DNA from: Methanotrichaceae archaeon
GTDB lineage: Archaea > Halobacteriota > Methanosarcinia > Methanotrichales > Methanotrichaceae
Length of the DNA stretch: 64,000 nucleotides
NCBI GenBank assembly: GCA_963754945.1
Contig: CAVWIG010000028.1
Span: forward strand, 128,001-192,000
Direction of reading: 5' to 3'
Shown: positions 1,814 to 52,686 of the stretch, piece after piece
Layout of the letters: every line of letters starts with the position of its first letter
Position numbering within the stretch: position 1 is the first letter of the stretch
Position numbers and translations under genes: made by a program
Notes under the pieces: generated by a model
The model's database searches: none
Seen by the model: the letters and a program-made list of their open reading frames with translations, nothing else
Told to the model about the DNA's origin: nothing

Positions 1814-3730
1814 CCGGAGTTTATAAGATCTTTTAAAAAACGGTCGTTACATGTTGAAAGATGTAGGGTCTAAGGAAGAATTAATTCATTCTGGAAGATA
1901 TTGGCCGAGTTGGAGTTTGCTGAAGACGTCTGCAGTATTTTTGTTCATGTCTTCGACCACAAAATCGAATTTCGTTCTGCTCGCTTCATGAGCTTCTGCG
2001 TTGTAGATAACACCAAGCCTTACTTGATCCAAATAGTGTGCCAATCGTTCTATCGATAATTCGGAATCATTAATAACATAGAGCAGATAATTATATAATA
2101 AGATTCCGACGACACATAAGAACACATGTGCCCTGATTTTACTATCTTTGCGGACATACGTTGGTTTCAAGGGTATCAACAATCGATCTTTTAACCATGC
2201 GATATCCGTTTCAATTTGGTTGCGCGAATCATACAATTCCGATATCTGGCGCGAAGTTAATTCCATCATATCCGTAAATATGACGGTTTTTCCCATAGAA
2301 GATACATGCTCTTGGATGCGAGTTTCGTTCAGCTGGAAATCGAGCTGCAACTTTCGATCTACTTCGACAACCTTATAATCAAATAAACCGCGATATTGCT
2401 TTGGAATTGCATCTACAACCCGATTGATCAGACCCTTTGGAGTCAATTTTCTACCTTTGCCATTTCTGTTTAATTTTAATTTTATATTCTCTATATCATT
2501 TAGAATTTCATCTTTAACTCGGTTCCATTCAGCTAGCTGTTTTTGTTGAGTTCGTTCGTTATATCTAATTATTCCTATAAAATCATGACTATACCAGCGT
2601 TTTGCTGTTCGATAGGCCCTTAAGGGATTTTCATGGGCGTTCGTCCAAGTCTCATTGAATTCCGAAATCGGAATCTGAAAGAGTTCTTTGCACATCGACT
2701 CAGGCAAGGAACCGACAACATGCATTCGCTCCACTGCTTTTTGAATATTTTCTGTCGAATTCATACCCCGATCAAATATTATCGCGATGTCTTTTGCAGG
2801 AATATCGATATCATGAAGCCTTTTGCAGATACCATCAATCAGACCAGAGAATAATTGTGTATCGTTCTTATTTGCAGGATATACAAATGAGTTGAACGGA
2901 ATATTATGATCCGATGTGGTCAATCCTATTCCGATCAGATTCTTATCGTATCTCTTCTCTTTTGAGTTCCCTTTTTGTGGTAAGTTTTCACCATGATTGA
3001 TATGAGTATAAAAATTCGTGGTGTCAAATATCAGTCGTGTAGGTTTAAGTCCGCGTTTGATCAAGGTACGAGATATATCAAGTTCGATGTTCTGAATGGT
3101 TTTTTCATCTAATTCATTCATATAATTGAGAAAGTTTTGACTAGAGAGTTTATATTTCGGATTCCAAAAGAATTGAAGCGAACTTTCTTTGAAGTATTCA
3201 TCGAGAACGTTCCTACTTAAGGCATGCTCAGATCTACCTATGATTATCAGAAGAAGGTATTGTGCAGGAGTAAGGCCACCGAGCTTCTTTCGATCAATAT
3301 TTCGGTTTATGCTATCCGTCAAACCTACTTCTTCAGCGGCCTTTATGAAGGCGGCAGGTTTCCCAAAAGAAAAAGAAGCAATATGGGCGGGCTTTTTCAA
3401 AGAAAAAAGATCATTGACTTTATCAGGAGATCCTACGCATTTTTGCATCACTTGGACTACCTTTCCATTTATGCGTTGGTTCTCGATGAGATAGAGATAT
3501 TTGCGCCCTTTTATGGTCTTTATCTTGAAGTGCACAACATATATTAGACCCTACAAGTGGATAAATGTTTCGATCATCTAATTGATGATGAAACCAAAAA
3601 AATAGATTCAATAAGCGTGTTTATCATAAGATCACTAAACGACCATGCCACAAGAAAATATAAAAATTTGTTAGACCCTACAAGAAACGATACGTGCTGA
3701 TGGGCTGGGTCAATATTTTATAAACTTCGG
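1814..3730 (-). mobile_element. IS1634-family insertion sequence, complete
   Basis: Terminal IRs CCGGAGTTTATAAGAT (1814) and CCGAAGTTTATAAAAT (reverse complement ending 3730); 5-bp target duplication TTTGA at 1809-1813 and 3731-3735. Confidence 0.9.
1886..3535 (-). CDS. IS1634-family DDE transposase
   Basis: N-terminal KTIKGRKYLYLIENQRINGK, FDTTNFY, GNSKEKRYD, IIFDRGM, Y..R.QIE, IRAHVFLC motifs. Confidence 0.9.
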   Translation of the reverse strand: MHFKIKTIKGRKYLYLIENQRINGKVVQVMQKCVGSPDKVNDLFSLKKPAHIASFSFGKPAAFIKAAEEVGLTDSINRNIDRKKLGGLTPAQYLLLIIIGRSEHALSRNVLDEYFKESSLQFFWNPKYKLSSQNFLNYMNELDEKTIQNIELDISRTLIKRGLKPTRLIFDTTNFYTHINHGENLPQKGNSKEKRYDKNLIGIGLTTSDHNIPFNSFVYPANKNDTQLFSGLIDGICKRLHDIDIPAKDIAIIFDRGMNSTENIQKAVERMHVVGSLPESMCKELFQIPISEFNETWTNAHENPLRAYRTAKRWYSHDFIGIIRYNERTQQKQLAEWNRVKDEILNDIENIKLKLNRNGKGRKLTPKGLINRVVDAIPKQYRGLFDYKVVEVDRKLQLDFQLNETRIQEHVSSMGKTVIFTDMMELTSRQISELYDSRNQIETDIAWLKDRLLIPLKPTYVRKDSKIRAHVFLCVVGILLYNYLLYVINDSELSIERLAHYLDQVRLGVIYNAEAHEASRTKFDFVVEDMNKNTADVFSKLQLGQYLPE

Positions 3731-3874
3731 TTTGAACATGAATATAGATATTCAGTTCTATCTCCAAAATAGCGCGATGGCGGAAAGACAGATCCGAGAT
3801 ATTTTGGAGTTGTTTCGGAATCTAGGCATCTGTTTGATGAGGAATGAAATAGTTTGAGAGAACTCTGGCAAAGC

Positions 3875-4318
3875 CTAACTCCTGATCTCGAAAGCATGCG
3901 TTTTATTTTCTTGATCCAATATGTCGCCTGAAGGCAACTTCAACTGAACGCTCTCATTGTACCAGCCGTCCGGAGCTCTAAGAGTCCCGTTTTGTCCTAC
4001 TAAATCGAGAGCTGTCGAGGTCGAACCATCCCATCTTGAAGTTCCAACATCAGGAAGCGTAAAATGTTCATCTTCTCTTGGTTTATACACCCTTCCATCC
4101 GACCCGGTGAATCTTACAATTAACCAAGCTTCTTGAGAGATAAAACCGTTATTGGAGATATTTACTTCGGTATTAATCGGGTTATAAATCCCGTATGTCC
4201 CATTTGGCCATTTAACTTCTTTCATGCACGCGCTAACATCACAGTGACCATCGTCGGCGGCTCCCTTCAGCGTTAGCGTGAGAAGCACCAAAACAACTGA
4301 CAACAAAGCTCGGTTCAT
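3875..4318 (-). CDS. Secreted hypothetical protein, possibly lamin-tail-domain-like Ig fold
   Basis: Signal peptide MNRALLSVVLVLLTLTLKGAA; IYNPINTEVNIS and VQLKLPSGDILDQ resemble lamin-tail domain motifs. Confidence 0.5.
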   Translation of the reverse strand: MNRALLSVVLVLLTLTLKGAADDGHCDVSACMKEVKWPNGTYGIYNPINTEVNISNNGFISQEAWLIVRFTGSDGRVYKPREDEHFTLPDVGTSRWDGSTSTALDLVGQNGTLRAPDGWYNESVQLKLPSGDILDQENKTHAFEIRS

Positions 4319-4466
4319 AAATATCACCTGATGATTCTAATTATTATGGGTCTTCTACTATTATAAATTTTAGTTTCTACAGTTGGCCGAATCCGGACCT
4401 GCGGACTCGGCTGGTATTCTCATCCCCGTTTGTACCTCGAAACTCCAAGTTTTAGTATGGAGAAGC

Positions 4467-4802
4467 TCAAGACTTTATCATCACCAATAGCATTTTGAAT
4501 TTGCTCAACGCTTTAAGGGCATGAGGCTCATTGGCAGGCAAGATCACGACCTCCCCTTGATTCAGATGGTAAGATTTGCCAGAGATACTAAACTCGACTT
4601 CTCCATCCACAACATACACAAGCGCATCAAATGGAGCGGTGTGCTCGCTTAGCCCCTGACCTACATCAAAAGCGAATAGTGTTACCGTACCAGTGCTCTT
4701 GCGAATTATCTCTCGGCTCACAACCGAGCCATCCTGATAGTTCACCAAATCCTTCAGCGGCTCTACTTTCGGCTGGCTGTTAATATTCTCTTTTTCTGTC
4801 AT
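4467..4802 (-). CDS. Cupin domain protein
   Basis: GQGLSEHTAPFDALVYVVDG ... LPANEPHAL cupin motifs. Confidence 0.9.
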   Translation of the reverse strand: MTEKENINSQPKVEPLKDLVNYQDGSVVSREIIRKSTGTVTLFAFDVGQGLSEHTAPFDALVYVVDGEVEFSISGKSYHLNQGEVVILPANEPHALKALSKFKMLLVMIKS

Positions 4803-5517
4803 TACTGCCCCCTCTTTGTGGCTTTAATGATGAACTCATTCCGATTGTTCATCGGGCCAAACACAACCTTCTTGAATTAGTTAGAGCCATGAAACTATTA
4901 AAATCTTGGTCTGAAAGCGGCTTTCCCCAAGCTATTTGACAGGAGAAACCTCTCCGGGGCCAGCTTCGTGAGAGGAATCTGATCGCTTGCAGCGTTCACG
5001 TCTGCGACCATACGATCACGTTAAAAACTTCGCGTTTTCTGGCCCTTCTGTACTATGATCTTTTGCAAGCCCGCCATTTAACTATGGTGGAATCGCTATG
5101 TTGAACCGTATTTGGAACTTAGCGAACCAATAAGGAACCAAAAAACGCACTTATTATATTGATTTATTTTAAATGTCTTCACAGAGAACAGCGAGTAATA
5201 GTATGTTGAGAGATAGTGCTCACCGGCCTGGGATTACTTCAGAGTTAGCCTTCGTTCGCCTTTATTCATTTGACTGCGCAGAGCTACGATGATTAACCAC
5301 TTATCATGCAACAGAAATATAAACATGGGAATCTATTAGGAAGCCAGTATTACCACCTCGTTCTCCGCGTGTCTTGGCTTTATATGCTTTTTTATAAAAT
5401 ATTTTTTTGATCCAAACAACCAGATCCCGCATTTACCTGGCGAAAGCGACTCGCCGGTGTGATACGTTCCGAAGACCATCACTTTATTACCTGGCTTAAT
5501 TCTCGGATCAGAAAAAC

Positions 5518-6788
5518 GGTAGTGTGCCGAGATTTCTGTAATTTGGAGTTGCCCTGTATCCCAACATACTCAATCAGCATCCATAGATAAATACTTTTTA
5601 GCGGTCAGCCATTCTTCGTTGATATCGATGAGGATCGAAACCCCTAACCTCATGAACGAGCTCTCACTTGGGAAGGCACCGACTACCCTGGATCTTCTTT
5701 TCAGCTCCTTGTTGATCCTCTCCAGCCCGTTTGTAGTCCGAATCCTTCTCCAGTGACCTCTGGGGAATGCCCTGTAATTCCACAGACTGAATCTGAAGCG
5801 GTCGATAGTGTCAGCAGATTTCGCATAACCTCTTTCCCTCAATTCTTTCGCTAAGTCCTGTATCTTGATTTCGTCTTCCAGAGCGATCTTGATCTTATCG
5901 GCGATCTCCTTATGATACTTCTTGGCAACGTTTCTCAAGACCGCTCTTGAAAAGTGAACGTGACACATTTGCCATGAAGCACCAAGAAATGATTTCTCAA
6001 CCGCTTTCTGGATTCCCTTATGACCATCTGATATCACGAGCTTTACTCCGGACAACCCACGATCCGCCAGATCTTGAAATAATCCCGACCAGAAGAGTTC
6101 ATCTTCACTGTCAGCTATTCTTGCGCCAAGTATCTCGCGATAACCGTCATCTCTAACACCTGTGACGATCATGAAAGCTTTGGTAACATATCTTGATTCT
6201 GTTCTTACTTTGAAGTAGCTTGCATCTACATAAAGATAAGGAATAGGACGTTCGATAGGTTTCTTCAGGAATTCTTCTACCTTCTCGTCAAGCTCTTTGG
6301 ATATCCTGGAAACGCTAGAGGCAGATAAATTCTCGATGCCAAATCGAGAGACAATATCTTGGATTCTCCTGGTTGAAACCCCCTGGAGATACGATTCGAG
6401 TACAGCGTTGACCAAAGCCTTCTCTACGCGCGAAAATCTGTCGAACACCTTGGTTTCGAAGGAAATTTCACGGAATTGAGGTTTCTTGAGTCGGAGCTCT
6501 CCAACTCGCGTCTTCAGAGATCTTTCCTTGTAGCCATTCCTATGTGCCTTTCGGGATTCGACTCTCTGATACGGTTCTGCATCTGCCTGTTGCGCCGCTT
6601 CTAGCTGCATTACAAGGTTCAAGAACCAGGTCAGAAGCTTCTTTAGTCCATCTTCCTGATCGATAAGGTAATCTTCCAAGAGTGCTATGGGTATCATGGT
6701 CCTGTGTCCTCCTTTTCTCAAGATTGGATAGGATACAGGGCCGATAATCATTCTTATTATCAAAGTACAGAAAAATCGTTACACTGCC
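5518..6788 (-). mobile_element. IS256-family insertion sequence, complete
   Basis: IRs GGTAGTGTGCCGAGATTTCTGTAATTT / GGCAGTGTAACGATTTTTCTGTACTTT; 8-bp target duplication AGAAAAAC at 5510-5517 and 6789-6796. Confidence 0.93.
5570..6697 (-). CDS. IS256-family (mutator-type) transposase
   Basis: RNGYKER, GVSTR, YLYVDA, VISDGHKG, WQMCHVH, TTNGLERINKELKRR motifs. Confidence 0.95.
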   Translation of the reverse strand: MIPIALLEDYLIDQEDGLKKLLTWFLNLVMQLEAAQQADAEPYQRVESRKAHRNGYKERSLKTRVGELRLKKPQFREISFETKVFDRFSRVEKALVNAVLESYLQGVSTRRIQDIVSRFGIENLSASSVSRISKELDEKVEEFLKKPIERPIPYLYVDASYFKVRTESRYVTKAFMIVTGVRDDGYREILGARIADSEDELFWSGLFQDLADRGLSGVKLVISDGHKGIQKAVEKSFLGASWQMCHVHFSRAVLRNVAKKYHKEIADKIKIALEDEIKIQDLAKELRERGYAKSADTIDRFRFSLWNYRAFPRGHWRRIRTTNGLERINKELKRRSRVVGAFPSESSFMRLGVSILIDINEEWLTAKKYLSMDAD

Positions 6789-8007
6789 AGAAAAACCCCA
6801 TGGTATCGGAGAAATGGGTGCAAATGTCGTCACATTTATCACCCTGCTGCAAGGCCGAGGACCGAATATAACATGATCTACCTTTATGGTCCAATAAGAT
6901 CCGCCGCCGAAGCCAGATGGTTTGTGAAAAGCAAGTGCAGTTCCAACCAGTTTGATCTCCGTAGGGGCTTCCTTTAAGTAGAAATCCTCAGATCCATGTA
7001 GTGTAATCACGCTGTTAGATTCAATTGCACCAAAGACCCAAACTCTATCACCTGCCTTCAATCCTGGATCCACTTTCCCCCATGGTGGCGGAATTGACTG
7101 GAATGTCTTCACCTTTACGCAGGGTGTGATGTTTTGCGGGCCAACCTGTATCTCATCCACTTTGACGGTCCAGTAGCTCGGCGCACCAGGCACGGTTCCC
7201 TGATGGAATTCGCATAAAGTGCCAATGAAGTAGACCGCTGAAGACCCAGCATTTTGACCTTCGGCAGACGTGTTATGATCGTCAATAGTCGATTGGGCCG
7301 ATCCCACAAACAGAGCTAAGGCTAAAAAGAGACTCATCCATGCAGTTAACTCGATTCTCTTCATAACATCTCCCCAAACTTCTGAAGTATATGAGATCTA
7401 TGAGATAAATACTTTTCACTGTTTTATTTATGTGATGCCAAATGATGAGGTCCGTTAGTTCCTCGCACATGAAATCAATTTATCTGATAGACACATTCCT
7501 GTAAATAGAAAACGTAACTCTTATCGAGGCGTGTTTCGGACCACGAACCCGATAAAACCCGACCACAAAGACAGAATAAACAGCTAAACCGGATTTACAG
7601 CTAGCTCTGCTATGGGCGTAGAACTCGACGCTGAATACAATAATTATTGACAAATTTTATGCATAATTCAGAGATGTATGATTGTCCCGAAACGTATGAA
7701 CAGCGGTATTCCAAAGGTGCAAAATTAGAACTAGCTGCTGGATAAACTGGAATGAGGCGCTGGTGGCAACCGTTGGCAAGCCCGCCATTCAATTCGACTA
7801 CACGTCAATTCTGTTTGGAGATCTTGCTTCCAAACTTCAGATCAAGAATTACGTAATTTATTGAGGGATATAACGAAGGTTCTTGCCTGCAGATTTCCAG
7901 CCCTTCTGAAAATGATTTGCTTTCTACTTGTGCACATCAACCAACGACATACTTCTTATTTTCGAAACCCTTATAGGGGCCGGTAAAGTCTTGACATAAG
8001 TCCTTGC

Positions 8008-9201
8008 TCAGGAAAAATCGGCCAGGCTGGCCTGAGCTGTTCCTGTCGCCAGTTTTGTGTACGGCTTCCATTTGCCCATTGGCGTGGCAATCCTTCTTCC
8101 CATCTCCCCCAGGGCCTCTTTCAGCGTGGTGAACCTCTTGGGCAGAGCCATCATGGCCTTTCGCGCCACTTCCCTGACCACCCACACGCCCAGAGGAGCC
8201 CAGTAATCCTCGGAGATCTCCCGGACGGCCAGTACGGATGCTTGCCTTCCCATCGCCGCCAGCCGCTCCAAAACAGCCAGACGAGCTGCATAGTAGCCGC
8301 CAGCCAGGGAGCTGTAATCCTTCTTGCCCCTCGGCCCTTCGCTGTCCGATCCGATGAAACCGTCCGGAGACCAGACCGATCTAGGCATCCATATCTCTAC
8401 CAGCTCGAAGCTGTAGGCTCCTGGAAGGAAAAGGATCTCGAAGTGGTTGCCCAGATCCTCCCCAGAGTAAAGCTGATAGCCGCCGATGAATGGCTTGTCG
8501 AGGACAGCCTCCTTCAGGGACTTTCCTATCATGTCGTCCGAGGCTGTGATGGACCATCTTGTGGGAACTAGCCTTCTATCCTTGCCCATTAGCCCAAGGG
8601 AGAGGAGCCTTGAGATGTGATCCACATTAATGCCCGAGGAGTAAAGTTCAGCCGCCGCAGTAGCTGCACCAGTGGCAGGGTCCTCCACAATCCTGTCTAC
8701 CTTTCTGGGGATGACAGGGTTTGTGGTTATCTCCATCTCCTTTAGCACGCCCGCCGGACCTGTGGGAGAAAGCACTCCGTCAAAACGTAGGCTCCCTCGC
8801 GGCGGCTTCAAAAAAATTACCTCAGTCCCTACTGGCGCTGAGGACATAGCTATCTGCTGTGCAGTCTCAAGCAGCCTTCCCGGCTCCCTGGCCTCATGCA
8901 CGCCGATCCTCGCCTCCGATCTGACTAGAGATGCCCTATGAGCTATTATCTCCCCGATGTCCATACCCAAAGATGGCATGCTTTGCTCCTGCACGGGCTC
9001 TCCGGCTGGTATCATGGGTCCGGCTCTGACTATCGGGTAGCCGTGTCGGCCAACGAAGACTTCCGGGGGCGAGAATCCCTCGATGGACAGGCCGATCTTT
9101 GGCAGAGCCGCTATCTCCTCGAACCTCCTCAGAATGGGACAGACCAGCCTGCCGCAGAACCCTCGGCCCTTGCAAGAGATGCACTGGCTCACACCTCTCA
9201 T
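8008..9201 (-). CDS. nreA: Nre-family archaeal DNA repair protein
   Basis: N-terminal CISCKGRGFCG..CP zinc motif, SPPEVFVGRHGYP, LVPTRWSITA, GGYYAARLAV, C-terminal PIP-like QASLADF. Confidence 0.9.
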   Translation of the reverse strand: MRGVSQCISCKGRGFCGRLVCPILRRFEEIAALPKIGLSIEGFSPPEVFVGRHGYPIVRAGPMIPAGEPVQEQSMPSLGMDIGEIIAHRASLVRSEARIGVHEAREPGRLLETAQQIAMSSAPVGTEVIFLKPPRGSLRFDGVLSPTGPAGVLKEMEITTNPVIPRKVDRIVEDPATGAATAAAELYSSGINVDHISRLLSLGLMGKDRRLVPTRWSITASDDMIGKSLKEAVLDKPFIGGYQLYSGEDLGNHFEILFLPGAYSFELVEIWMPRSVWSPDGFIGSDSEGPRGKKDYSSLAGGYYAARLAVLERLAAMGRQASVLAVREISEDYWAPLGVWVVREVARKAMMALPKRFTTLKEALGEMGRRIATPMGKWKPYTKLATGTAQASLADFS

Positions 9202-10957: not shown

Positions 10958-11845
10958 ATGAATAATTCCGATCGAAGTATGGACCTAACACCAGTTCAAA
11001 GAGATATATTGACCGCACTGATCAACATTCACCGCGGAGAAGGCCGCGCCGTCAAAGGCGAGGAGATTGCAGAGTTAATAGACCGCAACCCTGGGACCAT
11101 TAGGAACCAGATGCAGTCATTGAAGGCTTTAAACCTTGTAGAGGGCGTGCCCGGTCCTAAAGGCGGCTACAGGGCCACTGGCGCAGCCTATGAGGCACTG
11201 AGCCTCGACGCCACCGGTGATGTTGTCGAGGTGCCTGTAGTCAAGAACGGAGTAACCGTCGAAGGCGCGTCGGCCACGGAAATAGTCTTCAACAAGGTCA
11301 TGAAGTCCCAGGATTGCGGCGGAGTGGTCCGCATAATAGGCAACGTCAGGGATTTCAACGTGGGCGATGAGATTGAGATTGGGCCTACGCCGGTTAACAA
11401 GCTCTACATTCGCGGAAAGATATTGGGAAGGGATGACACCATGTCCCGGCTCATCTTCAGCGTTTCGACGATGATCTCCGTGCCAAGGGTCCCCATCAAG
11501 GCAGCAGCACGACGTGCAGTTCACATAAGCCCATCTGCTACCCTCCAGGAGGCTGCCAGGGTCCTGATCCACAACGGCGTTCAAGAGGCTTTAGTGGATG
11601 ACAGTTCTCCAGGCCTTGTCAGCATGACAGATATAACCCGAGCCATAGCCGATGGCAAGACAGACCTCAAGGCCAGCGAGGTTATGACCCGCGGCTTCCT
11701 GACAATCGATTCCGAGGAGCCCATCTACGAGGCCATAAAGATGCTGGGGCGGAATAGCGCAAGCCAGTTGGTGGTCTCCGAATCAGGGACGCTTTGGGGC
11801 ATAATCACCCCGGCTGATCTGGTAAAGTCGCTCACGCCGAACTGA
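10958..11845 (+). CDS. Winged-HTH plus CBS-domain transcriptional regulator (methanogen family)
   Basis: LTPVQRDILTALI..VKGEEIA..RNPGTIRNQMQSLK..GPKGGY, C-terminal CBS pair. Confidence 0.88.
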   Translation: MNNSDRSMDLTPVQRDILTALINIHRGEGRAVKGEEIAELIDRNPGTIRNQMQSLKALNLVEGVPGPKGGYRATGAAYEALSLDATGDVVEVPVVKNGVTVEGASATEIVFNKVMKSQDCGGVVRIIGNVRDFNVGDEIEIGPTPVNKLYIRGKILGRDDTMSRLIFSVSTMISVPRVPIKAAARRAVHISPSATLQEAARVLIHNGVQEALVDDSSPGLVSMTDITRAIADGKTDLKASEVMTRGFLTIDSEEPIYEAIKMLGRNSASQLVVSESGTLWGIITPADLVKSLTPN

Positions 11846-12345
11846 TCTCGGTGCCCGGGTGGGCGCCGATTATCCCTTTTTTCAGATTTTCGATATCCTT
11901 ACCGTGGACTATAGCCGTGGGTATGGAGCTGCGCTCGATTATCTTGGCGGCCAGGGGATCGACGGGCGAACGTGATCCTGCCTTCATCTCGGTCTCCATA
12001 GCCATCCTGACAAGCTCTTTGGGAGTCATCCTGGCTATTTTTCGGGCGGATGGGTCAACCTCCGGGTCAGCAGTGTAAACTCCGTCCACAGATGTAGCGA
12101 TGATGAGCCGATCGGCGCAAACGTACTCGGCCAGCAGTGCGGATACCGCATCGGTGGTCTGGCCGGGGCTTACGCCACCCATGACAACGATCTTTCCGGG
12201 CGAGCATAGCCTTGCTGCGTCCTCGTAAGAGGCAGGAATCTCCTTTGGGGCCGCATCGCCCAGGGCAGCGACGAGCAGCATTGCGTTGAGCTTTGTCGCA
12301 CCGATGCCTATCTGGTCGCAGAAGACCTCAGATGTGCCCAAACAC
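11832..12345 (-). pseudogene. pyrH: 5'-truncated uridylate kinase copy
   Basis: MGG..PGQTTDAVSALLAE, DGVYTADP, DPLAAKIIERS are present; the N-terminal SLGGS and VVGGG loops are missing. Confidence 0.85.
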
Positions 12346-12428
12346 ATCAAAACTAATCACTCTTATTGGATAAATATGATGATTTTTAGAAAATGAAAAG
12401 TTATAAGCACCGACTTCTCATCAGGACA

Positions 12429-13124: not shown

Positions 13125-13400
13125 GGAATGGTCCATTGCGGGATCTGATAAAAAGCTTACCTGCAATCGTCTGTCGCCTTGTCTAAAGGATAAGACATAT
13201 ATATAATAAATCTAATTCTCATCCCTGGTTACGCGATCAGAGCTATACGTCAGTATTCCTGAGCTCTATGTTAATATAGAGGTCACTAAGTTAGGTGGAG
13301 TTCAAGATGACTGTGAAAAATAGCGATTTCATCAGAATTGGATATATTGAGGGCGCTCGGGTGGCTCTGCTAAAATTGCTCATCGGGGGAGGTGCCTAGG

Positions 13401-13886
13401 ATGGCTGAACATTTGAAGAGTTCGAAACAAAAAAAGGACCGGCCCATCACTGATGGAACCGTGATTGACCACATTACAGGAGGCGAGGCGCTCAATGTGC
13501 TTAAGATTCTTGGCATCTCCGGAACCACTGAAGCCGAGGTCACAGTAGTTATGAATGTTGGTAGCGGCCGTCTCGTCAAAAAGGACATAGTAAAGGTTGA
13601 GGACCGTGAATTGAAAGACGAAGAGGTGAATAGGATCGCACTTATCGCCCCGTTAGCTACACTCAATATCATCCGAAATAGCAAAGTGACTGAAAAGCGC
13701 CAGGTGGTTTTGCCCCGTGAGATCACAGGCGTGGTGCGCTGCCAAAACCCCAACTGCATCTCGAACTCCACCGAACCCACCGTGTCCAGGATGCAGGTTA
13801 CAGTTACAGCCAAGAATCCTGTTTTGGTCAGATGCTACTACTGCGAGCAGCCTATCACAGAGAATATAGCAGATTACTTAATTTGA
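13401..13886 (+). CDS. pyrI: Aspartate carbamoyltransferase regulatory chain
   Basis: GTVIDHI, KKDIVKVE, IALIAP.ATLNII, zinc ligands CQNPNCISN ... RCYYCE. Confidence 0.93.
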   Translation: MAEHLKSSKQKKDRPITDGTVIDHITGGEALNVLKILGISGTTEAEVTVVMNVGSGRLVKKDIVKVEDRELKDEEVNRIALIAPLATLNIIRNSKVTEKRQVVLPREITGVVRCQNPNCISNSTEPTVSRMQVTVTAKNPVLVRCYYCEQPITENIADYLI

Positions 13887-14058: not shown

Positions 14059-14871
14059 CTACTTGGTCGACAAATCTTCAAGATTTCTATTATCTTGAAG
14101 ATCAGGAAACTCCTGCTCAATCCTTTTTATATAATGTAAGTTGTCGCTTTTCGATAGGACTATCTTTGCATGCAATGTGGCATTACTGAAATCCCCCATA
14201 GATTTGTAGATCAGCGCCAAATTATAATCGGCATCGATGTTGGTCTTATCTTGCTCGAGTGCCAATGAAGCAAAGCCTTTGGCCTCAACATTTCTTCCTA
14301 ATTTTCGTAGCGATGCGCTTGCAAAACTGTAGTTCTTGCTGGAATTGGAACCCTTGGCGATGGCCAAGGCCGATGTCTCCAAGGCAAGTGAGTGCGAATT
14401 TTTTTCGTTATACCTTGCGTACAATATCAGTAAATTCTCTGCTGGAATGGGCGAAATGAACTCGTACCAGCGTTCTTGTGCCATATCAATAGCCTCAATA
14501 TCTGAAGGCGAAATATGATCAGATAGCTTGAAGGGTCCATGATCGGATGGATCGCCTAACGCTCCCTTCTCAGGTTTTGGAAAAGTCAAGGTAAATAGCT
14601 CTTGTTTTTGATATTCCGCTGGTCCATAAAGTTTATGGTGGTGTTTGCTAACGAGCCAGGTAAAGACGATAAGGACCAACACCGGAAATAGGACTAAAAA
14701 CGAAATTAATGGAGTAAGATCATCGGGTCGAAGATTTTTACTAAAGCTAACGACAATAGAGGCGAATCCATACACTAAGACTATGAACAATGCGATTATC
14801 CCAAGTGGGTTTCTTGCCAATCCCACTGCTGTATCTCCAAAAATCTTCGGATTCCCGCTCAAATTTTGCAC
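14059..14871 (-). CDS. 2-TM membrane protein with C-terminal TPR-like repeats
   Basis: Two hydrophobic helices (NPLGIIALFIVLVYGFASIVV; LISFLVLFPVLVLIVFTWLV) followed by HHHKLYGP; TPR-like ADYNLALIYKSMGDFSNA. Confidence 0.75.
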   Translation of the reverse strand: MQNLSGNPKIFGDTAVGLARNPLGIIALFIVLVYGFASIVVSFSKNLRPDDLTPLISFLVLFPVLVLIVFTWLVSKHHHKLYGPAEYQKQELFTLTFPKPEKGALGDPSDHGPFKLSDHISPSDIEAIDMAQERWYEFISPIPAENLLILYARYNEKNSHSLALETSALAIAKGSNSSKNYSFASASLRKLGRNVEAKGFASLALEQDKTNIDADYNLALIYKSMGDFSNATLHAKIVLSKSDNLHYIKRIEQEFPDLQDNRNLEDLSTK

Positions 14872-14976
14872 CTTCTCGCTGACATCGGGTTATATCGTCT
14901 TGGTTCGTCGGGCAAGCTTATCTTGGAGCTTGCGAGTATTTTTTTATTTTGCAGGATATTGTCGTATTTTAGGAAA

Positions 14977-16758
14977 TTATCTTGAACAACCTGATATTGA
15001 TTCAGACACACGCATTGATTCTCCATTTGCAAAAATATCAATTGTGCCATTTTGTGAAACACATACGACTGCTGTCTTAGGACATTCCTTACTGGTTCTG
15101 TATGCGGCAACTTTCCTAGCACCGCCCTTCTTTGGAAATGATTCACTAGTATCCTTATTCGAAATAATAACTGACGCGTCCAGAACTATACCCTTTTTCG
15201 ATATAAACACCGCTCCATCTAATTTGGCTATCTCAGAGATCTCGCCTATCTCAAATGATAGTATCTTTTGTTTTTTAATCCGGATTTTTGGGTCTTCGTG
15301 TCCAAGGTCTTTTGATTTCTCTAATCCTATTACAAAGAGCCCTCCATATCCCCGGACGACCATTTCTCGAGATATTTCAAGAACCCTCTCCATTACCTGT
15401 CGGTCAATCCAAGGCGTAAAGCTGATAATTTCTTTCAGTCCTATCGGTGTGTCGAATTGCCAAGAACCTTTCTTCTCTGATAGCTCTGCAACTGCTTTCA
15501 ACTCTCCATCCCGATACACAGCAATAGACTTGCGTTTTCGGCGAAGAATCAATCCAATCGAATCAGTGTCTAATGTAGCTTGTCGGAAAGCTTCAATTTC
15601 CTTATAATTCTTACCACTAAGTTCAAGGTGCGATATCCCAAAAAGTTTGCCCTCCCTATCAAATAGAAAAACCGCTTCGGTTTCTTGTAACGCATCATAG
15701 TAAGGTATAAGTTCTTCTAACTTTTCGGAACTTTCGCATTTTATATTATCTGGGGGATCAACCTTTGCATCCGAACCAAACATGCCGGTAAGCTCATCCT
15801 CGTCACCAATTAGGATTGAACAGCCTAATGATCGAGACTCAACTTTTATATTCGAAACAGCAAATAGATGCATTACAAGCTCTGAAAGAACTCTTTTTCT
15901 ATCGATATCCGTTTCATTCCCATGCAATAAGCGAATAAATTGCATGAGTCTACTTTCTTCTACAATCCTGTCCATTGGAAGCCCAATACTAAGAGATTGT
16001 AGCCAGTGATCCAAAAAATTTTTTATCAGATCAAGCTGATCCACGTTTTTCTGCTTATAATAAACCATTTTATATCCCTTACGGATTTTATCAGCCTTCT
16101 CCGGATTGGACAAGATCACGGGAACTATATTGTCTTCTGCATCATCATGCAGACTGTCTAGTGGCTTTTGAGCTAGGCAATCGGGGCAATCACTTGGATC
16201 ATACATTTCCGAATGATCCGTAAATAGTGAAAAAACCTTGTATTCATTACCATCATCCACCTCCACTTTATGTTCTCTGCTACGATCAATGGCTACTACA
16301 ACTCGAACAATTTTTGCCTTATGTTCTTTGAGGGACAGAATCGATGACTTTAGAGTACGTCCGGTCATAAATATATCATCTACTAGTACTACACCCGTTA
16401 AGCCATCTGGATGATCTTCAATACCTCCTGTCGCCTTTGTTCCATCCCACGCATTCCACGTAATTTTACCTGCAGTACGTCGGCCTGCTAAGCATTGCAC
16501 TTTTAATTCTTCAGCAAGATTAATTGCAAGTAAGATTCCACCAATTGTACTAGAAGCCACCATTTTGGGTTCAATATCAGCGAGCTCATTAGCCATTGCA
16601 TTTGCGAATTCTTTGCAAGTTTCTGGATTCATCATGCCAATTCGCGCATTAATATATGTTCTCGAATGCTTGCCACTTGAAAGTTTGAAGTGCCCATCAT
16701 CATGATAGCATCCATCATTTTTCAATGAATTTTCCCATTTTTTTTGACTTGGCTTCAT
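14977..16758 (-). CDS. Orotate-PRTase-like domain fused to tandem DisA_N (diadenylate cyclase)-like domains
   Basis: GHFKLSSGKHSRTYIN, VVLVDDIFMTG, YDPSDCPDC (PyrE type); C-terminal GYGGLFVIG, AKLDGAVFI, GGARKVAA, VSQNGTIDIF (DAC fold); middle degenerate copy LGCSILIG..EAVFLFDREGKL..IAVYRDG. Confidence 0.8.
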   Translation of the reverse strand: MKPSQKKWENSLKNDGCYHDDGHFKLSSGKHSRTYINARIGMMNPETCKEFANAMANELADIEPKMVASSTIGGILLAINLAEELKVQCLAGRRTAGKITWNAWDGTKATGGIEDHPDGLTGVVLVDDIFMTGRTLKSSILSLKEHKAKIVRVVVAIDRSREHKVEVDDGNEYKVFSLFTDHSEMYDPSDCPDCLAQKPLDSLHDDAEDNIVPVILSNPEKADKIRKGYKMVYYKQKNVDQLDLIKNFLDHWLQSLSIGLPMDRIVEESRLMQFIRLLHGNETDIDRKRVLSELVMHLFAVSNIKVESRSLGCSILIGDEDELTGMFGSDAKVDPPDNIKCESSEKLEELIPYYDALQETEAVFLFDREGKLFGISHLELSGKNYKEIEAFRQATLDTDSIGLILRRKRKSIAVYRDGELKAVAELSEKKGSWQFDTPIGLKEIISFTPWIDRQVMERVLEISREMVVRGYGGLFVIGLEKSKDLGHEDPKIRIKKQKILSFEIGEISEIAKLDGAVFISKKGIVLDASVIISNKDTSESFPKKGGARKVAAYRTSKECPKTAVVCVSQNGTIDIFANGESMRVSESISGCSR

Positions 16759-16892
16759 TCGATCAACTCCTCGCCACTGAGCAATTTCACTTCCCTTCTG
16801 AGGAGCTGGCAGAACTCGGTCAGATATTCTTTATCATGCACGTTCGCAAAGTGCTCATAGCTCATGAATGCCACTGGTTTACGTTCATCCAT
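16755..16892 (-). pseudogene. 45-aa ORF resembling the N-terminus of a TIR domain
   Basis: MDERKPVAFMSYEHFANVHDKEYLTEFCQLLRREVKLLSGEELIE*; AFMSY resembles the TIR beta-A motif; ATGA overlap with the PyrE-DAC start; not in the ORF track. Confidence 0.6.
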
Positions 16893-17079
16893 AGACGGAT
16901 TCCTACCTACTGGTGCAAGATTCAGGCTCTTATTCTTTAAGCTTTTTGTAAGTAAAGTCTATCGAAAATTTTGCAAATTTGTAGGTTTGTGTATTACTTC
17001 TCTTGATTGTTTGCTTTAGCTCTCAGCTAAATTCTGAAGTTCAGTCTGTAAATTTCAAAAAAAAGGAAGTTTAAGAGTT

Positions 17080-17490
17080 CTAGATCTTATCCAGAGCCTT
17101 GACAATATTGCCGAAGATGGCCTTGAGATCGCCCGTGCCGTTTATGTTGGCAACGATGCCCCTCTTGTTGTAGAAATCGATCAGGGGCTGGGTCTGAGCG
17201 TGGTAAGCCTGAAGCCTCTCCTTGACCATATTCCTCGGTATCGTCCTGCCTCTGGTACAGTACAGGTCAGCGCCGCATGCATCGCACTTGCCTGCCACTT
17301 TTGGCGGGTTGAACTGGACGTGGTAGGTTGTTCCGCACTTGCACATTCTGCGGCCTGTCACACGCTTGATCAGCTCAGCGTCGGAAACATCGACATTCAG
17401 GACAACATCGATCTTCTGGCACAGAGCCGGAAGGATCTTGTCCAGAGCCTCTGCCTGGGGAATGGTCCTCGGGTAGCCGTACAGCATCCA
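17080..17490 (-). pseudogene. adk: Adenylate kinase 3' remnant
   Basis: GYPRTIPQAEAL, LID domain RRMCKCG.TYH..CDACG, RLQAYHAQTQPLIDFY; no P-loop; internal 5-bp duplication GTACAGTACAG scrambles the QRxDD motif. Confidence 0.88.
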
Positions 17491-17678
17491 GCCTGCCTCA
17501 GTTTCGATAGGTTCCAAGATCGCAGCCGCTGAGGCTGCGCAGATCCGGGAACTGATCGAAGCCGGTGTTTATCTAAAAGAGTCTGATTTTGTGAGAGATG
17601 CGACGAAGGAGACAGTAGTGAGATAACATTCAGCTACTACCAAAACTAATATAGCCATTGATGACTACTATTAGCTAT

Positions 17679-19424
17679 ATGAAAAAATATTGCCTGTTGC
17701 TTCTAATAGCGCTAACCTTATCGTTAGCCGTAATAGCTTCTGCCGAACACACTAAGAACAGTACCGTAAATATGAACTATACTAACACTACAGCATTGAA
17801 GGAACTGGTTATAGGGTCAGAAAAGAATTTAGAAACCTATCGTTTCACCCTCACTCAAGATCAGAATATCGCGATCATCAAGCTCCCGCTTGGCAACACA
17901 ACGTACCAGACCAAGCTCCTAACCCTTGGAGCAGGTGGCTTCAACCGCACCAGCAAGGCCTTAAAGACCGTCAGTACCTCCATGTCCATTCCAGTGGGCC
18001 AGGAGGAGAACGCAACCGCTGCAACCACAGAGCTGTATTTCCTCAACAATACCATTTATAGAAATGTTAACGGCAACAGAACCGTTCTGAATCTCACCTT
18101 CCCCGCGAACATCTGGATGAGCCAGAACAGGCTCGAACAGTCCTCAGATCTGATGAACTCATCCAGTGTCAAACTCCTCGGCACGCAAGCCATCAACGAC
18201 GTGGGTTACTATGTAATTGAGGTCACACCCAATAGCAGCGCGCTCTCCGCACTGGTCAGCAGACAATTGGGTTCAAACTTCTCCAAATCACTCTCCACTC
18301 ATGTCAGCGTAGGTCTAGGTTCGAACTTTTATGGGTCCACACTCGCACTGAACCTCAGCGCTCTATTGAATAATACCCGGCTTAGATATGTCATCTGGAT
18401 CGCAGAGGACAGCCATCTGCCAAGTATGGAGTATGTTCAGATGAACATGATCCTAACCCCAGGCATGTTTGGTCTACCCAGTGCAGCGAATCTGGAGATG
18501 AATATCGATTCCGTCACAACCGTGATCTTCAGCGGTTTCAACAAGACCGTGAATATAGCGCTGCCTAAGGAGGCGAATATAGCAGGGATGGCATCTTTGA
18601 ACAACACAAACGCATCGCTATCCAAGCCTGCTGATCCCAATGACCCTCCGGTTACCAGCTCTGATATCGCCAACAATCCAGATCTTCAGCAACGGTTTTG
18701 GTTGGCGGGTGCATACGCTTTCCTCAATGGAGATTACTATAGCACTCGCTATGGCTACCCGTACATGTCTTACGACATGTATTATTCGCCGTACTATACT
18801 CAAAACTACAATTCATACAATGCGTACCCGAACTACAACCAATACTCGAACTACAACTCCTACACCAGCCCAATGCAGAGATACCCCACTCTCAGACTTG
18901 GATATACACTACCCTCCCAAGGATATACTACGCCTATGCAAGGGTATACTGTGATGACTGGTTATAATCCCTCATTGGGCACATATCTGACAGATAGCAA
19001 GGGCATGACCTTATACCACTTGGTGAACGACGGTGGCAACTATAATAGCGCTTGCACCGATGCAACTTGCACGAGCATCTGGCCTCCGTTCTACGTACAA
19101 GGCATAAACGTACCTGGGAACTTGAACCTTGCTGATTTCCGCACCATAAGTGTTAATGGATACAGGCAATACCAACAGACCACCTATAAGGGATGGCCGC
19201 TATACTATTACTCAGGTGATACAATACCAGGCCAGATCAATGGGCAGGGCCTGAAAGACAGCTATGGAACCTGGTCCGTGGTAAGTCCCAATAGCATCAA
19301 CACCTTCCCTGCCAACTTCCCTTACAGCTCCAGCACAGCTACACCGACTCAGTATCCTACAGCGCAGCCATACACAACAACGCCATACAGTCAATCGACG
19401 CCATATAGTTCATCGGGCTACTAG
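17679..19424 (+). CDS. Secreted multidomain protein: LppX/LolA-like N-domain, Tyr-rich linker, C-terminal secreted-repeat (Lipoprotein_15-like) domain
   Basis: Signal peptide; LTDSKGMTLY..D..C...C..IWPPF and QTTYKGWPLYYYSGD..PG..NGQG...W motifs; the N-domain call is tentative. Confidence 0.7.
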   Translation: MKKYCLLLLIALTLSLAVIASAEHTKNSTVNMNYTNTTALKELVIGSEKNLETYRFTLTQDQNIAIIKLPLGNTTYQTKLLTLGAGGFNRTSKALKTVSTSMSIPVGQEENATAATTELYFLNNTIYRNVNGNRTVLNLTFPANIWMSQNRLEQSSDLMNSSSVKLLGTQAINDVGYYVIEVTPNSSALSALVSRQLGSNFSKSLSTHVSVGLGSNFYGSTLALNLSALLNNTRLRYVIWIAEDSHLPSMEYVQMNMILTPGMFGLPSAANLEMNIDSVTTVIFSGFNKTVNIALPKEANIAGMASLNNTNASLSKPADPNDPPVTSSDIANNPDLQQRFWLAGAYAFLNGDYYSTRYGYPYMSYDMYYSPYYTQNYNSYNAYPNYNQYSNYNSYTSPMQRYPTLRLGYTLPSQGYTTPMQGYTVMTGYNPSLGTYLTDSKGMTLYHLVNDGGNYNSACTDATCTSIWPPFYVQGINVPGNLNLADFRTISVNGYRQYQQTTYKGWPLYYYSGDTIPGQINGQGLKDSYGTWSVVSPNSINTFPANFPYSSSTATPTQYPTAQPYTTTPYSQSTPYSSSGY

Positions 19425-49819: not shown

Positions 49820-51187
49820 TCATGCTTCGATGCCGAGGAATGCCAGCATCATCTCGGATTGCATCAGGTCCTCGATCCCCTGCGTTGCTGGAATGAACTT
49901 GAACTGGAAGGCATAGTTGTAGATTCCAGATCCGTCAAGCTTCATCCATACCAGCCAGAGGTTAGTACCTGCCGGTTGGGCCCGGATGTTGTGGTATAGC
50001 CTATTCGCGTCCTTGAGCTGTAAGGTTAGGCCGCCAACTGCGAAGTTGCCCAGGCTCCTGTACTGGTAGAACGCCATGACCTTGATAGGCACATCCAGAT
50101 CTGGATATCCCGTCCTCTGGACGATAAGGTCCGTTGTCTTGACACCAGTTATGGGCATGACCATCAGGACGCCTCCTGTTGGAAGGAATATATCACCAGC
50201 CGGGGCTATAGGTGTCAAGGTTATGGTCGTCTGGTATGTCTGCTTATCGGTTACTGTGAAGGTCAGGGGATAATCCTGGTAGCCCGTCTTCCTGACTGTC
50301 ACTGAGTAGTAGCCTGCGGTCAGGGCGATGAATTTGTCTGTTTGGCCTATAACAGCGCCTTTAATCACGATGTCGGCCTTGAGCGATCCAGCGGTGTTGA
50401 TCTGGATTCCCGTTTGGCCGGAAGGCGGTATAATCGACAAACTGTAGCCGTAGCCTGCATAAGCTCGGAAGATGCCGCATACGCCGTATGCAATCTTGAA
50501 CCAGCCTGGATCGCTCGGATCGCCCCATTCTGTGCTCCAGGAGTTCTTACAGATCCAGCAGCCCTGTACATCGTCGTAGCCGATTATACAGACACAGTGG
50601 CCTCCCACATAATCACCGTACCCAGGAGAATAGACGCCGCCAGAATAATCGAAGAAGTCAGAATCTACTTCCATCGCAGCCTGAATGGCCCCATTGGAGC
50701 TGAGCCACTGCTTAGCGACTGCATCAGAGGTGATTCTGGTGGCGGAGAGGATCTTGAGCTTGTTGCCGTCACAGCAGCTTTGCTTACTGCCGTTGTATGG
50801 CCAGCACCTCTCAGGACATACGCCCCTGGACTGAAGAGCAGCATTTGCAGCTTCAAGTGTCCACCCATTAGCACATGTGCCACCGTTGCTGAATAGGTCG
50901 GCCTCGGAAAGCTTGTCGTCTTCGCCTGGATTTTGGTCGGCGACTTTTTTGGTGACTTCGAGGGTGGCTGTAGAGCCAAAGGCCACACAGCTTCCACAAT
51001 CACCCTGGTCCTGAATGGGTGTTGTATAGTTCTTGCCGTTGACATTGCGCCAGTTCCATGTGGCCGGTGTGCCCCAGATGGTGTGGACCTTAAGAGCTAT
51101 GTCCCTGGCGTCCTCTGCGGCGGTACGTTTTAGCTGCTCGGTGATGATGAGTCCTAGCTTGCGAATCATACCCTTTCCTTTTTCCAT
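49820..51187 (-). CDS. Papain-family (C1A) cysteine peptidase with a PEGA-like domain
   Basis: QGDCGSCVAF, GGHCVCIIGY, CKNSWSTEWG; then G.T..LTAGYYSVTVRKTGY. Confidence 0.88.
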   Translation of the reverse strand: MEKGKGMIRKLGLIITEQLKRTAAEDARDIALKVHTIWGTPATWNWRNVNGKNYTTPIQDQGDCGSCVAFGSTATLEVTKKVADQNPGEDDKLSEADLFSNGGTCANGWTLEAANAALQSRGVCPERCWPYNGSKQSCCDGNKLKILSATRITSDAVAKQWLSSNGAIQAAMEVDSDFFDYSGGVYSPGYGDYVGGHCVCIIGYDDVQGCWICKNSWSTEWGDPSDPGWFKIAYGVCGIFRAYAGYGYSLSIIPPSGQTGIQINTAGSLKADIVIKGAVIGQTDKFIALTAGYYSVTVRKTGYQDYPLTFTVTDKQTYQTTITLTPIAPAGDIFLPTGGVLMVMPITGVKTTDLIVQRTGYPDLDVPIKVMAFYQYRSLGNFAVGGLTLQLKDANRLYHNIRAQPAGTNLWLVWMKLDGSGIYNYAFQFKFIPATQGIEDLMQSEMMLAFLGIEA

Positions 51188-51597
51188 TCACAATCATCTC
51201 CTTAGCTATCTATAACTAATGTCTAAAAATATAAATATTGTGTATCCTTTGGTATGGAGGAGCAGGAAATCTCGTATCCAGGCCAGTGAAGAGGCATCAG
51301 GCAAGTGGATTGGTAGATTAAGATTAGTTTGAATTTGGAAAATAATTTCTGACTACTCAGATGCTTGCTCCTAACCCTCAATGCGGGCACTAATGGCAAT
51401 TTTTAGAAAAACGCACAAAATCTGTTGTAGTCTTCTTATCCCTAGATATCATAACGCTAATATGTCTCCCAGTTATTCATGGCCAACCGCAAGCAGATCT
51501 GGCTCAAACCGGAAAACTATTTGGAAATCTGTTCATTAGCGGCATCCACTTTGGATAATTTGGCTATTGTCTCAGCAAATAAATGGAATGATTAATC

Positions 51598-52515: not shown

Positions 52516-52686
52516 ACCTAGAATAATAATTAATCCTGTGACATCTCTAACAATTGAAACATAAAATCGTAAAATTCCACGATCTCCTCCTACAATAGAT
52601 TATTTGTATTTTTAAATTTCATCACAACATTTTCATCTCCAGCAAATTACTTGGATTTAAATATTAGTTCTTCTACTTTATTTGGA

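Follow-up and report, generated by a model that had tools for sequence, protein, structure and literature searches.

A phosphoribosyltransferase fused to tandem diadenylate cyclase folds in a Methanotrichaceae archaeon: a candidate nucleotide-signalling enzyme severed from its TIR domain

A 64,000-nt stretch of DNA from a Methanotrichaceae archaeon (contig CAVWIG010000028.1, positions 128,001 to 192,000; hereafter the window) contains three co-oriented open reading frames (ORFs) in AT-rich DNA (Table 1). The largest specifies a 593-amino acid (aa) protein, here called the enzyme, in which a phosphoribosyltransferase (PRTase) domain and a helical linker precede two consecutive diadenylate cyclase (DAC) folds, the first of them degenerate (DAC'). 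Upstream lies a 45-aa ORF and downstream a gene for a 270-aa protein with two transmembrane segments (2TM) and tetratricopeptide repeat (TPR)-like sequences. The coordinates, motifs and base composition reported for this arrangement in an initial annotation, made from the sequence alone, were all found to be correct. GC content is 39.7% in the 593-aa gene and 41.9% in the 270-aa gene, as compared to 49.5% in the whole window and 48.7-57.8% in the flanking pyrI, pyrH, adk fragment and RFC genes; that is, the locus lies some 10-15 points under its flanks. The low GC of the enzyme gene suggests that it was acquired. Archaeal genes lie on both sides (pyrI, two UMP-kinase-type genes, a regulator of the HrcA type with winged helix-turn-helix (HTH) and CBS domains, and the RFC large subunit), and database annotations assign the nearest relatives of the 593-aa protein to Methanothrix sp.

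Table 1. Features of the locus in window coordinates. Residue numbers refer to the 593-aa protein unless stated otherwise. L029 is a metagenomic, Methanothrix-like locus; OPRTase, orotate phosphoribosyltransferase; PRPP, phosphoribosyl pyrophosphate.
Feature	Position	Strand	Description
45-aa ORF	16755-16892	minus	orphaned TIR N-terminus (remnant); stop overlaps the next ATG
593-aa ORF	14977-16758	minus	PRTase, helical linker, DAC', DAC
270-aa ORF	14059-14871	minus	2TM-TPR protein; neighbour of the enzyme gene
Upstream intergenic region	16893-17079	minus	32.6% GC; DNA blocks shared with L029
Deletion junction	16740-16775	minus	from alignment of window 16690-16960 (minus) with L029 250-1010
PRTase domain, residues 1-205	16144-16758	minus	OPRTase-like, type I, pyrE_Therm type; intact PRPP loop, C-terminal CPxC motif
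Helical linker, residues 206-282	15913-16143	minus	helices 211-217, 219-236, 239-259 and 268-279 in the AlphaFold2 model
DAC', residues 283-450	15409-15912	minus	degenerate DAC fold; own motif PYYDA..E
DAC, residues 451-593	14980-15408	minus	DGA (D514-G515-A516); R-K-V at the RHR position
2TM module, residues 1-90 of the 270-aa protein	14602-14871	minus	two hydrophobic segments
TPR-like module, residues ~150-270 of the 270-aa protein	14062-14424	minus	similarity to P0176

The N-terminal domain of the enzyme matches the Pfam family Pribosyltran (38.2 bits, residues 57-178; cut-off 26.3) and contains GHFKLSSGKHS at residues 22-32 and VVLVDDIFMTG at residues 123-133. The best NCBIfam model is pyrE_Therm (TIGR01367; E 3e-24, profile positions 4-182 of 187), and a profile of the domain aligns best with the Helicobacter pylori OPRTase 4paw (E 8.9e-19). 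Likeness to the Thermus/Helicobacter-type OPRTases extends over ~170 residues, and 4paw and the N-domain have in common GHF.L.SG.HS, the PRPP loop and a C-terminal P-S-x-C-P-x-C tail. Unlike these enzymes, however, the window protein scores below both curated pyrE equivalog cut-offs (85.7 vs 150.25 bits for TIGR01367; 56.2 vs 106.8 bits for TIGR00336) and is fused to ~390 further residues. D127, D128 and T132 of the PRPP loop are invariant across the family and, together with the Pfam match, assign the domain to the type I PRTases (PF00156). Altogether, the Pfam, NCBIfam and 4paw comparisons bear out the OPRTase-like N-domain and PRPP loop proposed at the outset. The idea that the domain could be the host's housekeeping pyrE was rejected, since a canonical, better-scoring pyrE is found elsewhere in each of the four host genomes.

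The C-terminal part of the protein is recognised by the Pfam DAC family (PF02457) with 46.6 bits (E 3.1e-12, residues 467-580; cut-off 27), while residues 283-450 have no Pfam match. When folded alone, the latter segment gave a mean predicted local distance difference test value (pLDDT) of 84.5, and all of the 24 Foldseek matches of the resulting DAC' model at E <= 0.001 in the PDB were diadenylate cyclases. In a Foldseek-independent search with VIA, only six chains reached Z >= 5; all six were DACs (Z 10.1-12.1, with 123-142 residues aligned), the next match having a Z of 4.4. An hhalign comparison of DAC' with the C-terminal DAC was collinear but not significant by itself (E 0.013, probability 3.3%); it is the fold search that settled the point and on which the assignment of DAC' as a DAC fold is based. 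Consistent with these results, Foldseek with an AlphaFold2 model of the entire protein, built from 23 homologues (pLDDT 81.6), matched both OPRTases and DisA/CdaM. The degenerate and the near-intact DisA_N-like domains anticipated from the sequence are thus recovered by Pfam and by the isolated-domain searches, and the model has the PRTase and two DAC folds that had been expected of it. Both DAC folds match DisA, CdaA and CdaM structures at 11-25% identity; unlike these proteins, the enzyme has its DAC folds in tandem, the first without a DGA motif, and carries no HhH, transmembrane or YojJ partner domain.

The DGA motif of the C-terminal DAC is invariant in 23 sequences. A phmmer search with the C-terminal 154 residues found no match among PDB sequences, and a 10-sequence profile was used for the alignment of the C-terminal DAC to them. 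In the resulting alignment with Mycobacterium smegmatis DisA, DGA falls on DGA and G-S-R-K-E-T-A on G-T-R-H-R-S-A. The RHR motif is altered to R-K-V in the window protein and to R-R/K-E in most of the family, leaving only the first Arg invariant; more distant relatives keep R-H at this position. DAC' lacks DGA and has invariant residues of its own (D355, A356 and E359). A homodimer prediction for residues 283-593 scored 0.28, under a mark of 0.42, and carries no weight either way. Relative to the L029 orthologue, the ratio of nonsynonymous to synonymous substitution rates (dN/dS) of the 593-aa gene is 0.13, with dS near saturation; by part, it is 0.21 for the PRTase, 0.14 for the linker, 0.09 for DAC' (the most conserved) and 0.11 for DAC. 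As judged from these ratios, purifying selection acts on all four parts, and the gene evolves about as slowly as the adjoining pyrH.

The 26 homologues collected comprise the window's own protein, five proteins with an N-terminal TIR_2 domain (75-77% identity, 757-803 aa) and 20 proteins without TIR (38-53% identity, mostly ~590 aa). With the TIR_2-bearing L029 orthologue, the 45-aa ORF shares 77% identity across residues 1-44 (tblastn E 1.9e-18), far beyond what an ORF arising by chance would show. Pfam detects no TIR in it, only these first 44 residues of the fold remaining; the region of the TIR catalytic Glu presumably lies outside them. In L029, a single 793-aa TIR-PRTase-DAC'-DAC protein is encoded; after its gene come pyrH, then a shortened pyrH paralogue and then a CBS-HTH gene, an order that the window shares. 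The DNA of the two loci aligns upstream of the TIR start codon and through the first ~130 nt of the coding sequence; the window lacks the following ~490 nt, corresponding to TIR residues ~45-207, and similarity picks up again at the KPSQK codons. The deletion shifts the frame and leaves the TGA of the stub overlapping the ATG of the 593-aa frame (ATGA). On this alignment, the 45-aa and 593-aa ORFs are two pieces of one former TIR-PRTase-linker-DAC'-DAC gene. The initial annotation had described a TIR-like mini-ORF coupled to the start of the enzyme gene: the TIR origin holds, while the apparent coupling is the scar of an internal deletion rather than a design.

In sequence terms, the layout left by the deletion is that of the commoner, TIR-less form of the family. 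The deletion is probably recent relative to the split of the window and L029 genomes, because the stub still looks conserved (dN/dS 0.04 relative to L029, an unreliable value as it derives from 44 codons with saturated dS). Six short contig pieces from sequencing runs cover parts of the locus: five (runs X1 and X2) agree with the window at every base, one (X3) has two differences, and none of the six crosses the deletion junction. The intergenic region upstream of the stub is probably the promoter region, as predicted from its conservation. Besides the lineage closest to the window (P0002-6), a TIR domain is found in a second, more diverged lineage (P0040). PADLOC models gave weak TIR-family matches with one of the TIR-bearing proteins, P0004 (e.g., SAVED5--SAVED_TIR, E 2e-4).

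The enzyme family is rare, with a patchy distribution over archaea and three bacterial phyla, and its members are usually encoded by stand-alone genes. When each GTDB species was represented by one genome, a scan with peptide patterns that divergent members can escape yielded three full-length loci, in Sedimentisphaerales (Planctomycetota), in a Chloroflexota metagenome-assembled genome and in Desulfobacterales (Desulfobacterota). When 40 related genomes were scanned, a full-length match was obtained in G000 only, the others matching the PRTase or the DAC alone; none of the best 150 of 351 matches in 400 further genomes of the phylum was full-length. Strong DAC-region matches in another archaeal family were set aside, as they come from a 177-aa stand-alone canonical DAC of different architecture. 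The ESM Atlas gave no usable match. An exhaustive search of representatives produced 583 matches at E <= 0.001, and a search with DAC'-DAC as query produced 34 clusters at E <= 1e-5. Many proteins of ~770-800 aa found in the exhaustive search match residues 287-582 of the 593-aa protein only, from which it appears that DAC'-DAC is a reusable module joined to other N-termini; one such relative is annotated DisA/GAF by JGI, the GAF part being known by annotation. Family proteins are named either "diadenylate cyclase" or "orotate phosphoribosyltransferase" in databases, and each name misses the architecture. The enzyme is the sole DAC hit in two of the host genomes (G000 and G043) and the sole hit above cut-off in a third (G042); the fourth (G041) has a canonical DAC besides. 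Only one of the 24 genomes of the host family (G001-G024) has a DAC match, a weak one, as opposed to 15 of 16 in two sister families (G025-G040). The host family thus seems to have lost DacZ-type synthesis of cyclic di-AMP (c-di-AMP).

The 270-aa protein has two hydrophobic segments (residues ~21-47 and 49-78). Its own TPR matches are weak (E 0.04-0.16); its last ~190 residues, however, align with the C-terminus of P0176, a TIR_2-TPR protein (65% identity over 71% of the query) in which TPR_2 and TPR_1 are matched at ~2e-6. A 2TM and TPR protein downstream of the enzyme gene, as initially proposed, is thereby confirmed. A very large number of proteins share the first ~90 residues at their N-termini with 60-69% identity (from 4797 candidates, the search with the 270-aa protein gave 1472 matches at E <= 0.001) and end in REC (PF00072), pYEATS (PF20305) or unknown domains. 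This 2TM module (e.g., in P0185, P0195 and P0200), for which Pfam has no family, is a membrane anchor of high conservation whose heads can be exchanged. Syntenic L029 lacks the gene, the spacing between the enzyme gene and pyrH being 410 bp there; the gene has no tblastn match in any of 41 other loci and was not found in any of the three other genomes carrying the enzyme. These searches are the co-occurrence check that had been suggested for it, and they revealed no co-occurrence; likewise, no other gene is conserved as a partner of the enzyme in the surveyed loci. The 2TM-TPR gene is an independent neighbour made of shuffled modules, separate from the enzyme. The protein may itself be conflict-related.

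The layout of the enzyme is rare and apparently undescribed in the literature searched. By its domains, the protein falls into the superfamilies of DACs and of type I PRTases. It does not pass the NCBIfam equivalog tests for pyrE, DacZ, DisA, CdaA and DS-2C, and its best matches among PADLOC models are weak (PRTase_III-A, E 0.008; ShosT, E 0.018). No PADLOC match below E 0.008 pointed to a CD-NTase or pyrimidine cyclase with cognate effector, as would be found in cyclic oligonucleotide-based antiphage signalling systems (CBASS) or in Pycsar. No PRTase-DAC or TIR-DAC protein is described in the literature searched; the survey of 22 DAC families by Galperin (2023) and the paper by Corrigan and Gründling (2013), cited for archaeal DacV-DacX, may list a bare PRTase-DAC class. 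PADLOC, NCBIfam and the literature searched thus agree with the earlier remark that the architecture belongs to no named system.

The closest parallels are found among DACs with immune functions. DS-2C has been shown experimentally to act against phages and synthesises c-di-AMP in vitro (10.64898/2026.08.10.743927, PMC13092281, PMC13069673). DS-2C/CdaG proteins (CBASS-DAC; DACNG-DACNH-DAC, ~550-575 aa) resemble the window protein in length, in the C-terminal position of the DAC and in having presumed sensor domains before it. However, neither DACNG nor DACNH is detected by Pfam in the 593-aa protein even at E <= 1, the model NF053872 (DS2_3_antiphage) scores 14.6 bits against a cut-off of 630 and within the DAC core only, the N-terminus is an OPRTase-like PRTase, the middle is a second DAC fold and no CBASS genes lie nearby. 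The second parallel is PanS-PanE (Panoptoo/PanDA). PanS is a DAC alone (~150 aa) in which broken symmetry of the active site leads to an asymmetric product, 3'3'-cUA, and PanE is a 2TM protein with a beta-barrel; more than 90% of the minimal DACs are in an operon with PanE. The window likewise has a DAC gene beside a gene for a two-TM protein, and the PanS asymmetry finds a likeness in the DAC'-DAC pair, which is asymmetric by construction. In contrast to PanS-PanE, the DAC protein is 593 aa long and the 2TM protein carries TPR and shows no co-occurrence. DacZ/CdaZ, the usual DAC of euryarchaea (PMC6741144) and present in the sister families, has a PK_C-like N-domain in place of a PRTase, and its model NF041371 scores 23.6 bits with the window protein (cut-off 430). 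Finally, the TIR-bearing relatives recall TIR-SAVED and TIR-STING proteins in placing TIR ahead of nucleotide-handling domains in one chain, but they have no SAVED or STING domain, and what follows their TIR resembles an enzyme more than a receptor.

To characterise the surroundings of the family, 58 ORFs of 100 aa or more, lying no further than 5 kb from the enzyme gene, were surveyed in 11 loci. Pribosyltran is the commonest Pfam family (7 of 58 ORFs), with two OMPdecase and two AA_kinase members. A pyrE, pyrF or pyrH gene lies within 5 kb in eight of 12 loci, pyrH being the one present in the window and L029. Adjacent PRTases score above the pyrE cut-off (TIGR00336) in L030, L033, L034 (two genes) and L038; in L031, a 443-aa protein is the counterpart of the tandem protein of L030 and is pyrE-like by that likeness. 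The pyrF gene adjacent to the enzyme in L002 is the only one of its genome (G042). These neighbourhoods argue for a PRTase domain that handles PRPP, orotate or orotidine monophosphate (OMP), and they would equally suit a cyclase reporting pyrimidine status. They also lend indirect support to the initial proposal that the PRTase may make or sense a pyrimidine nucleotide.

Genes of the defence type lie near some copies. In L003 (Desulfobacterales), the segment 10010-12060 encodes a retron St85-type reverse transcriptase (255 bits, above cut-off) and an St85-family effector-like protein, and two small ORFs at 6896-7563 resemble, on reading of the ORFs, an MNT/HEPN toxin-antitoxin pair. PIN_12 occurs in L035, SIR2_2 in L034, and DNA methylases are also found. 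The SIR2_2 protein of L034 (354 aa) belongs to a tight cluster (4265-8703) with a pyrE-like PRTase of 223 aa, a weak PRTase-like protein of 458 aa and an unknown protein of 421 aa, which may be a separate system based on NAD and PRPP. In the sub-lineage of L030 and L031, a gene for a SAM-dependent methyltransferase (Methyltransf_25) (7769-8434 and 7766-8428, respectively) begins 29 bp after the enzyme gene and is followed by a convergent 444-aa tandem double-pyrE gene. A PADLOC batch scan of the 58 ORFs matched mostly methyltransferase models.

The reading that we tentatively prefer is that the enzyme is a self-contained nucleotide-signalling protein, probably with a role in conflict or immunity, whose TIR domain has been lost in the window and which owes nothing to the 2TM-TPR gene at its side. 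We infer a conflict role because of the TIR fusions, seen in both diverged lineages, the behaviour of the gene as a low-GC accessory gene and the existence of DACs that are proven immune enzymes. The rarity and scattered occurrence of the family and the defence-type genes beside some copies point the same way. Invariance of DGA, of the first RHR Arg and of the two Asp and the Thr of the PRPP loop throughout the family fits the same interpretation. In such an enzyme, the OPRTase-like domain would bind or turn over PRPP or an orotate- or OMP-like pyrimidine ligand and would thereby control or feed the covalently linked DAC'-DAC pseudo-dimer. The live DAC site would use ATP to form an adenine-containing di-nucleotide. 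Since only one such site is present, DAC'-DAC would have to oligomerise to yield c-di-AMP, or else make an asymmetric product. The N-terminal TIR, a presumed NADase, would have been added as an effector in the Methanothrix lineage, and the window copy would at best retain the activity of the TIR-less form.

A number of observations weigh against this interpretation. The function of the family is predicted from sequence and structural models; the altered RHR motif means that cyclase activity of the predicted DAC is not assured; and, given a stub that still looks conserved and a possibly recent deletion, an undamaged frame of 593 aa is no proof that function outlasted the loss of the TIR. PADLOC detected nothing significant in the three window proteins (best E 0.008), and none of 22 pattern matches in viral contigs was confirmed as a homologue. 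Several neighbourhoods are plainly housekeeping (PPDK, TldD/PmbA, pyrF). The enzyme is the only clear DAC in three of four host genomes, a finding that also fits a housekeeping cyclase. Above all, the pyr-gene neighbourhoods, which are the strongest single contextual signal, suit a role in metabolism or regulation no less well than an immune one.

The latter points lead to the alternative with the best claim to attention, one that we consider possible though rather unlikely: a housekeeping or regulatory diadenylate cyclase in which the OPRTase-like domain would act as a sensor of PRPP, orotate or OMP, so that the state of the pyrimidine pool is reported as c-di-AMP. Such a protein would replace CdaA, DisA or DacZ in its few hosts, and the TIR fusion would be a lineage-specific oddity. 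Besides the pyrimidine genes near eight of 12 copies and the sole-DAC status of the enzyme (in G000 and G043, and above cut-off in G042), the near-absence of DAC genes from Methanotrichaceae in comparison with the sister families speaks for this alternative, as do the attachment of DAC'-DAC to a GAF-annotated region in relatives, a classic sensor layout, and an evolutionary rate about that of the adjoining pyrH. Yet the gene is patchy and dispensable, being missing from the 40 related genomes and from the best 150 matches in the 400 further ones, a canonical pyrE is retained at another place in each of the four host genomes, the low GC suggests acquisition, TIR was fused in two diverged lineages and defence genes stand beside some copies. 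To our knowledge, prokaryotic TIR domains are nearly always conflict-related.

The protein might also be a receptor, a view that we find improbable. The DAC'-DAC cleft would then bind a cyclic or linear di-nucleotide and switch on the PRTase (and the TIR in relatives) as effectors, in analogy to SAVED or degenerate GGDEF/EAL domains. The altered RHR and the fact that DAC', devoid of DGA, is nevertheless the most conserved part would accord with binding rather than catalysis; moreover, PRTase domains serve as effectors in PADLOC systems, albeit the matches here are weak, and an N-terminal TIR is the order seen in TIR-SAVED and TIR-STING effectors. However, the invariance of DGA and of the first RHR Arg, together with the R-H of distant relatives, is the pattern of a selected active site, no partner cyclase gene is conserved nearby, and three of the four host genomes have no other clear DAC to make the ligand.

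Somewhat less probable still is that the locus is a relic, the 593-aa frame being poorly translated since the TIR deletion and decaying like its neighbours. The frame was shifted and requires a restart at the ATG overlapping the stub stop, the adjacent adk is a 5'-truncated fragment, and with a conserved stub and a deletion suggested to be recent the intact frame is uninformative. Conversely, the 593 codons contain no stops or frameshifts, the start lies within a few residues of that of the natural TIR-less homologues, and ATGA overlaps can support coupled translation. Least credible of all is the operon of a signal synthase and a 2TM membrane effector originally envisaged, in which a signal from the enzyme would activate the 2TM-TPR protein as in CBASS, Pycsar or Panoptes: the two genes share a strand, are separated by a 105-bp gap free of T-rich stretches and are both low in GC, the 2TM module is swapped for TIR in P0176 and joined to REC or pYEATS elsewhere, and PanS-PanE pairs a DAC with a 2TM effector. 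The absence of the gene from L029, the 41 loci and the three host genomes nevertheless largely refutes such an operon; moreover, PanE-type effectors carry a ligand-binding beta-barrel domain rather than TPR, and no PADLOC match was found.

A bolder version of the preferred reading, that of an immune nucleotide-signalling enzyme, strikes us as unlikely but worth stating. The family would constitute a third distinct class of immune DAC, contained in one chain, in which the PRTase monitors a pyrimidine mononucleotide or supplies it from PRPP and DAC'-DAC joins it to AMP to give an asymmetric pyrimidine-adenine signal, linear or cyclic; a TIR NADase would have been added in methanogens without c-di-AMP signalling of their own, and the system would guard the OMP/UMP node. 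A role of DACs in antiviral immunity was shown in 2026 only, and just two forms, DS-2C and minimal PanS, have been described. If an immune role is true, an archaeal, multi-phylum class would be added to these, and the enzyme would provide a natural covalent pseudo-dimer with one live site, bearing on how DACs make asymmetric products, as well as a possible link of pyrimidine biosynthesis to nucleotide signalling. In a methanogen family otherwise without DAC genes, any product would be a private signal and easily traced.

Some features of the flanking DNA were noted in passing. Directly upstream of the TIR stub, the adk fragment (17080-17517, minus strand) covers only positions 72-150 of 151 of the ADK profile plus the lid and is missing the P-loop N-terminus; ~140 bp separate it from the next gene, and it resembles a 5'-truncated pseudogene. 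On the other side, the space from pyrH to the 2TM-TPR gene is occupied by pyrI (13392-13886, plus strand), which codes for the regulatory chain of aspartate carbamoyltransferase and has no pyrB beside it; L029 has neither pyrI nor the 2TM-TPR gene at the matching position. Immediately after the full-length pyrH is an N-terminally truncated UMP-kinase-type gene (11832-12350, minus strand; AA_kinase positions 75-233 of 234). This short paralogue seems to be maintained, because the arrangement is kept in L029 (3779-4255; 73% identity, dN/dS 0.11). A 588-aa protein encoded at 17658-19424 (plus strand) has a signal-anchor-like N-terminus, a long low-complexity region rich in N, S, T and Y, and two C-terminal Lipoprotein_15 repeats. 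Other low-GC stretches of the window are at 2001-4000 (0.375-0.383) and 51001-53000 (0.349-0.405).

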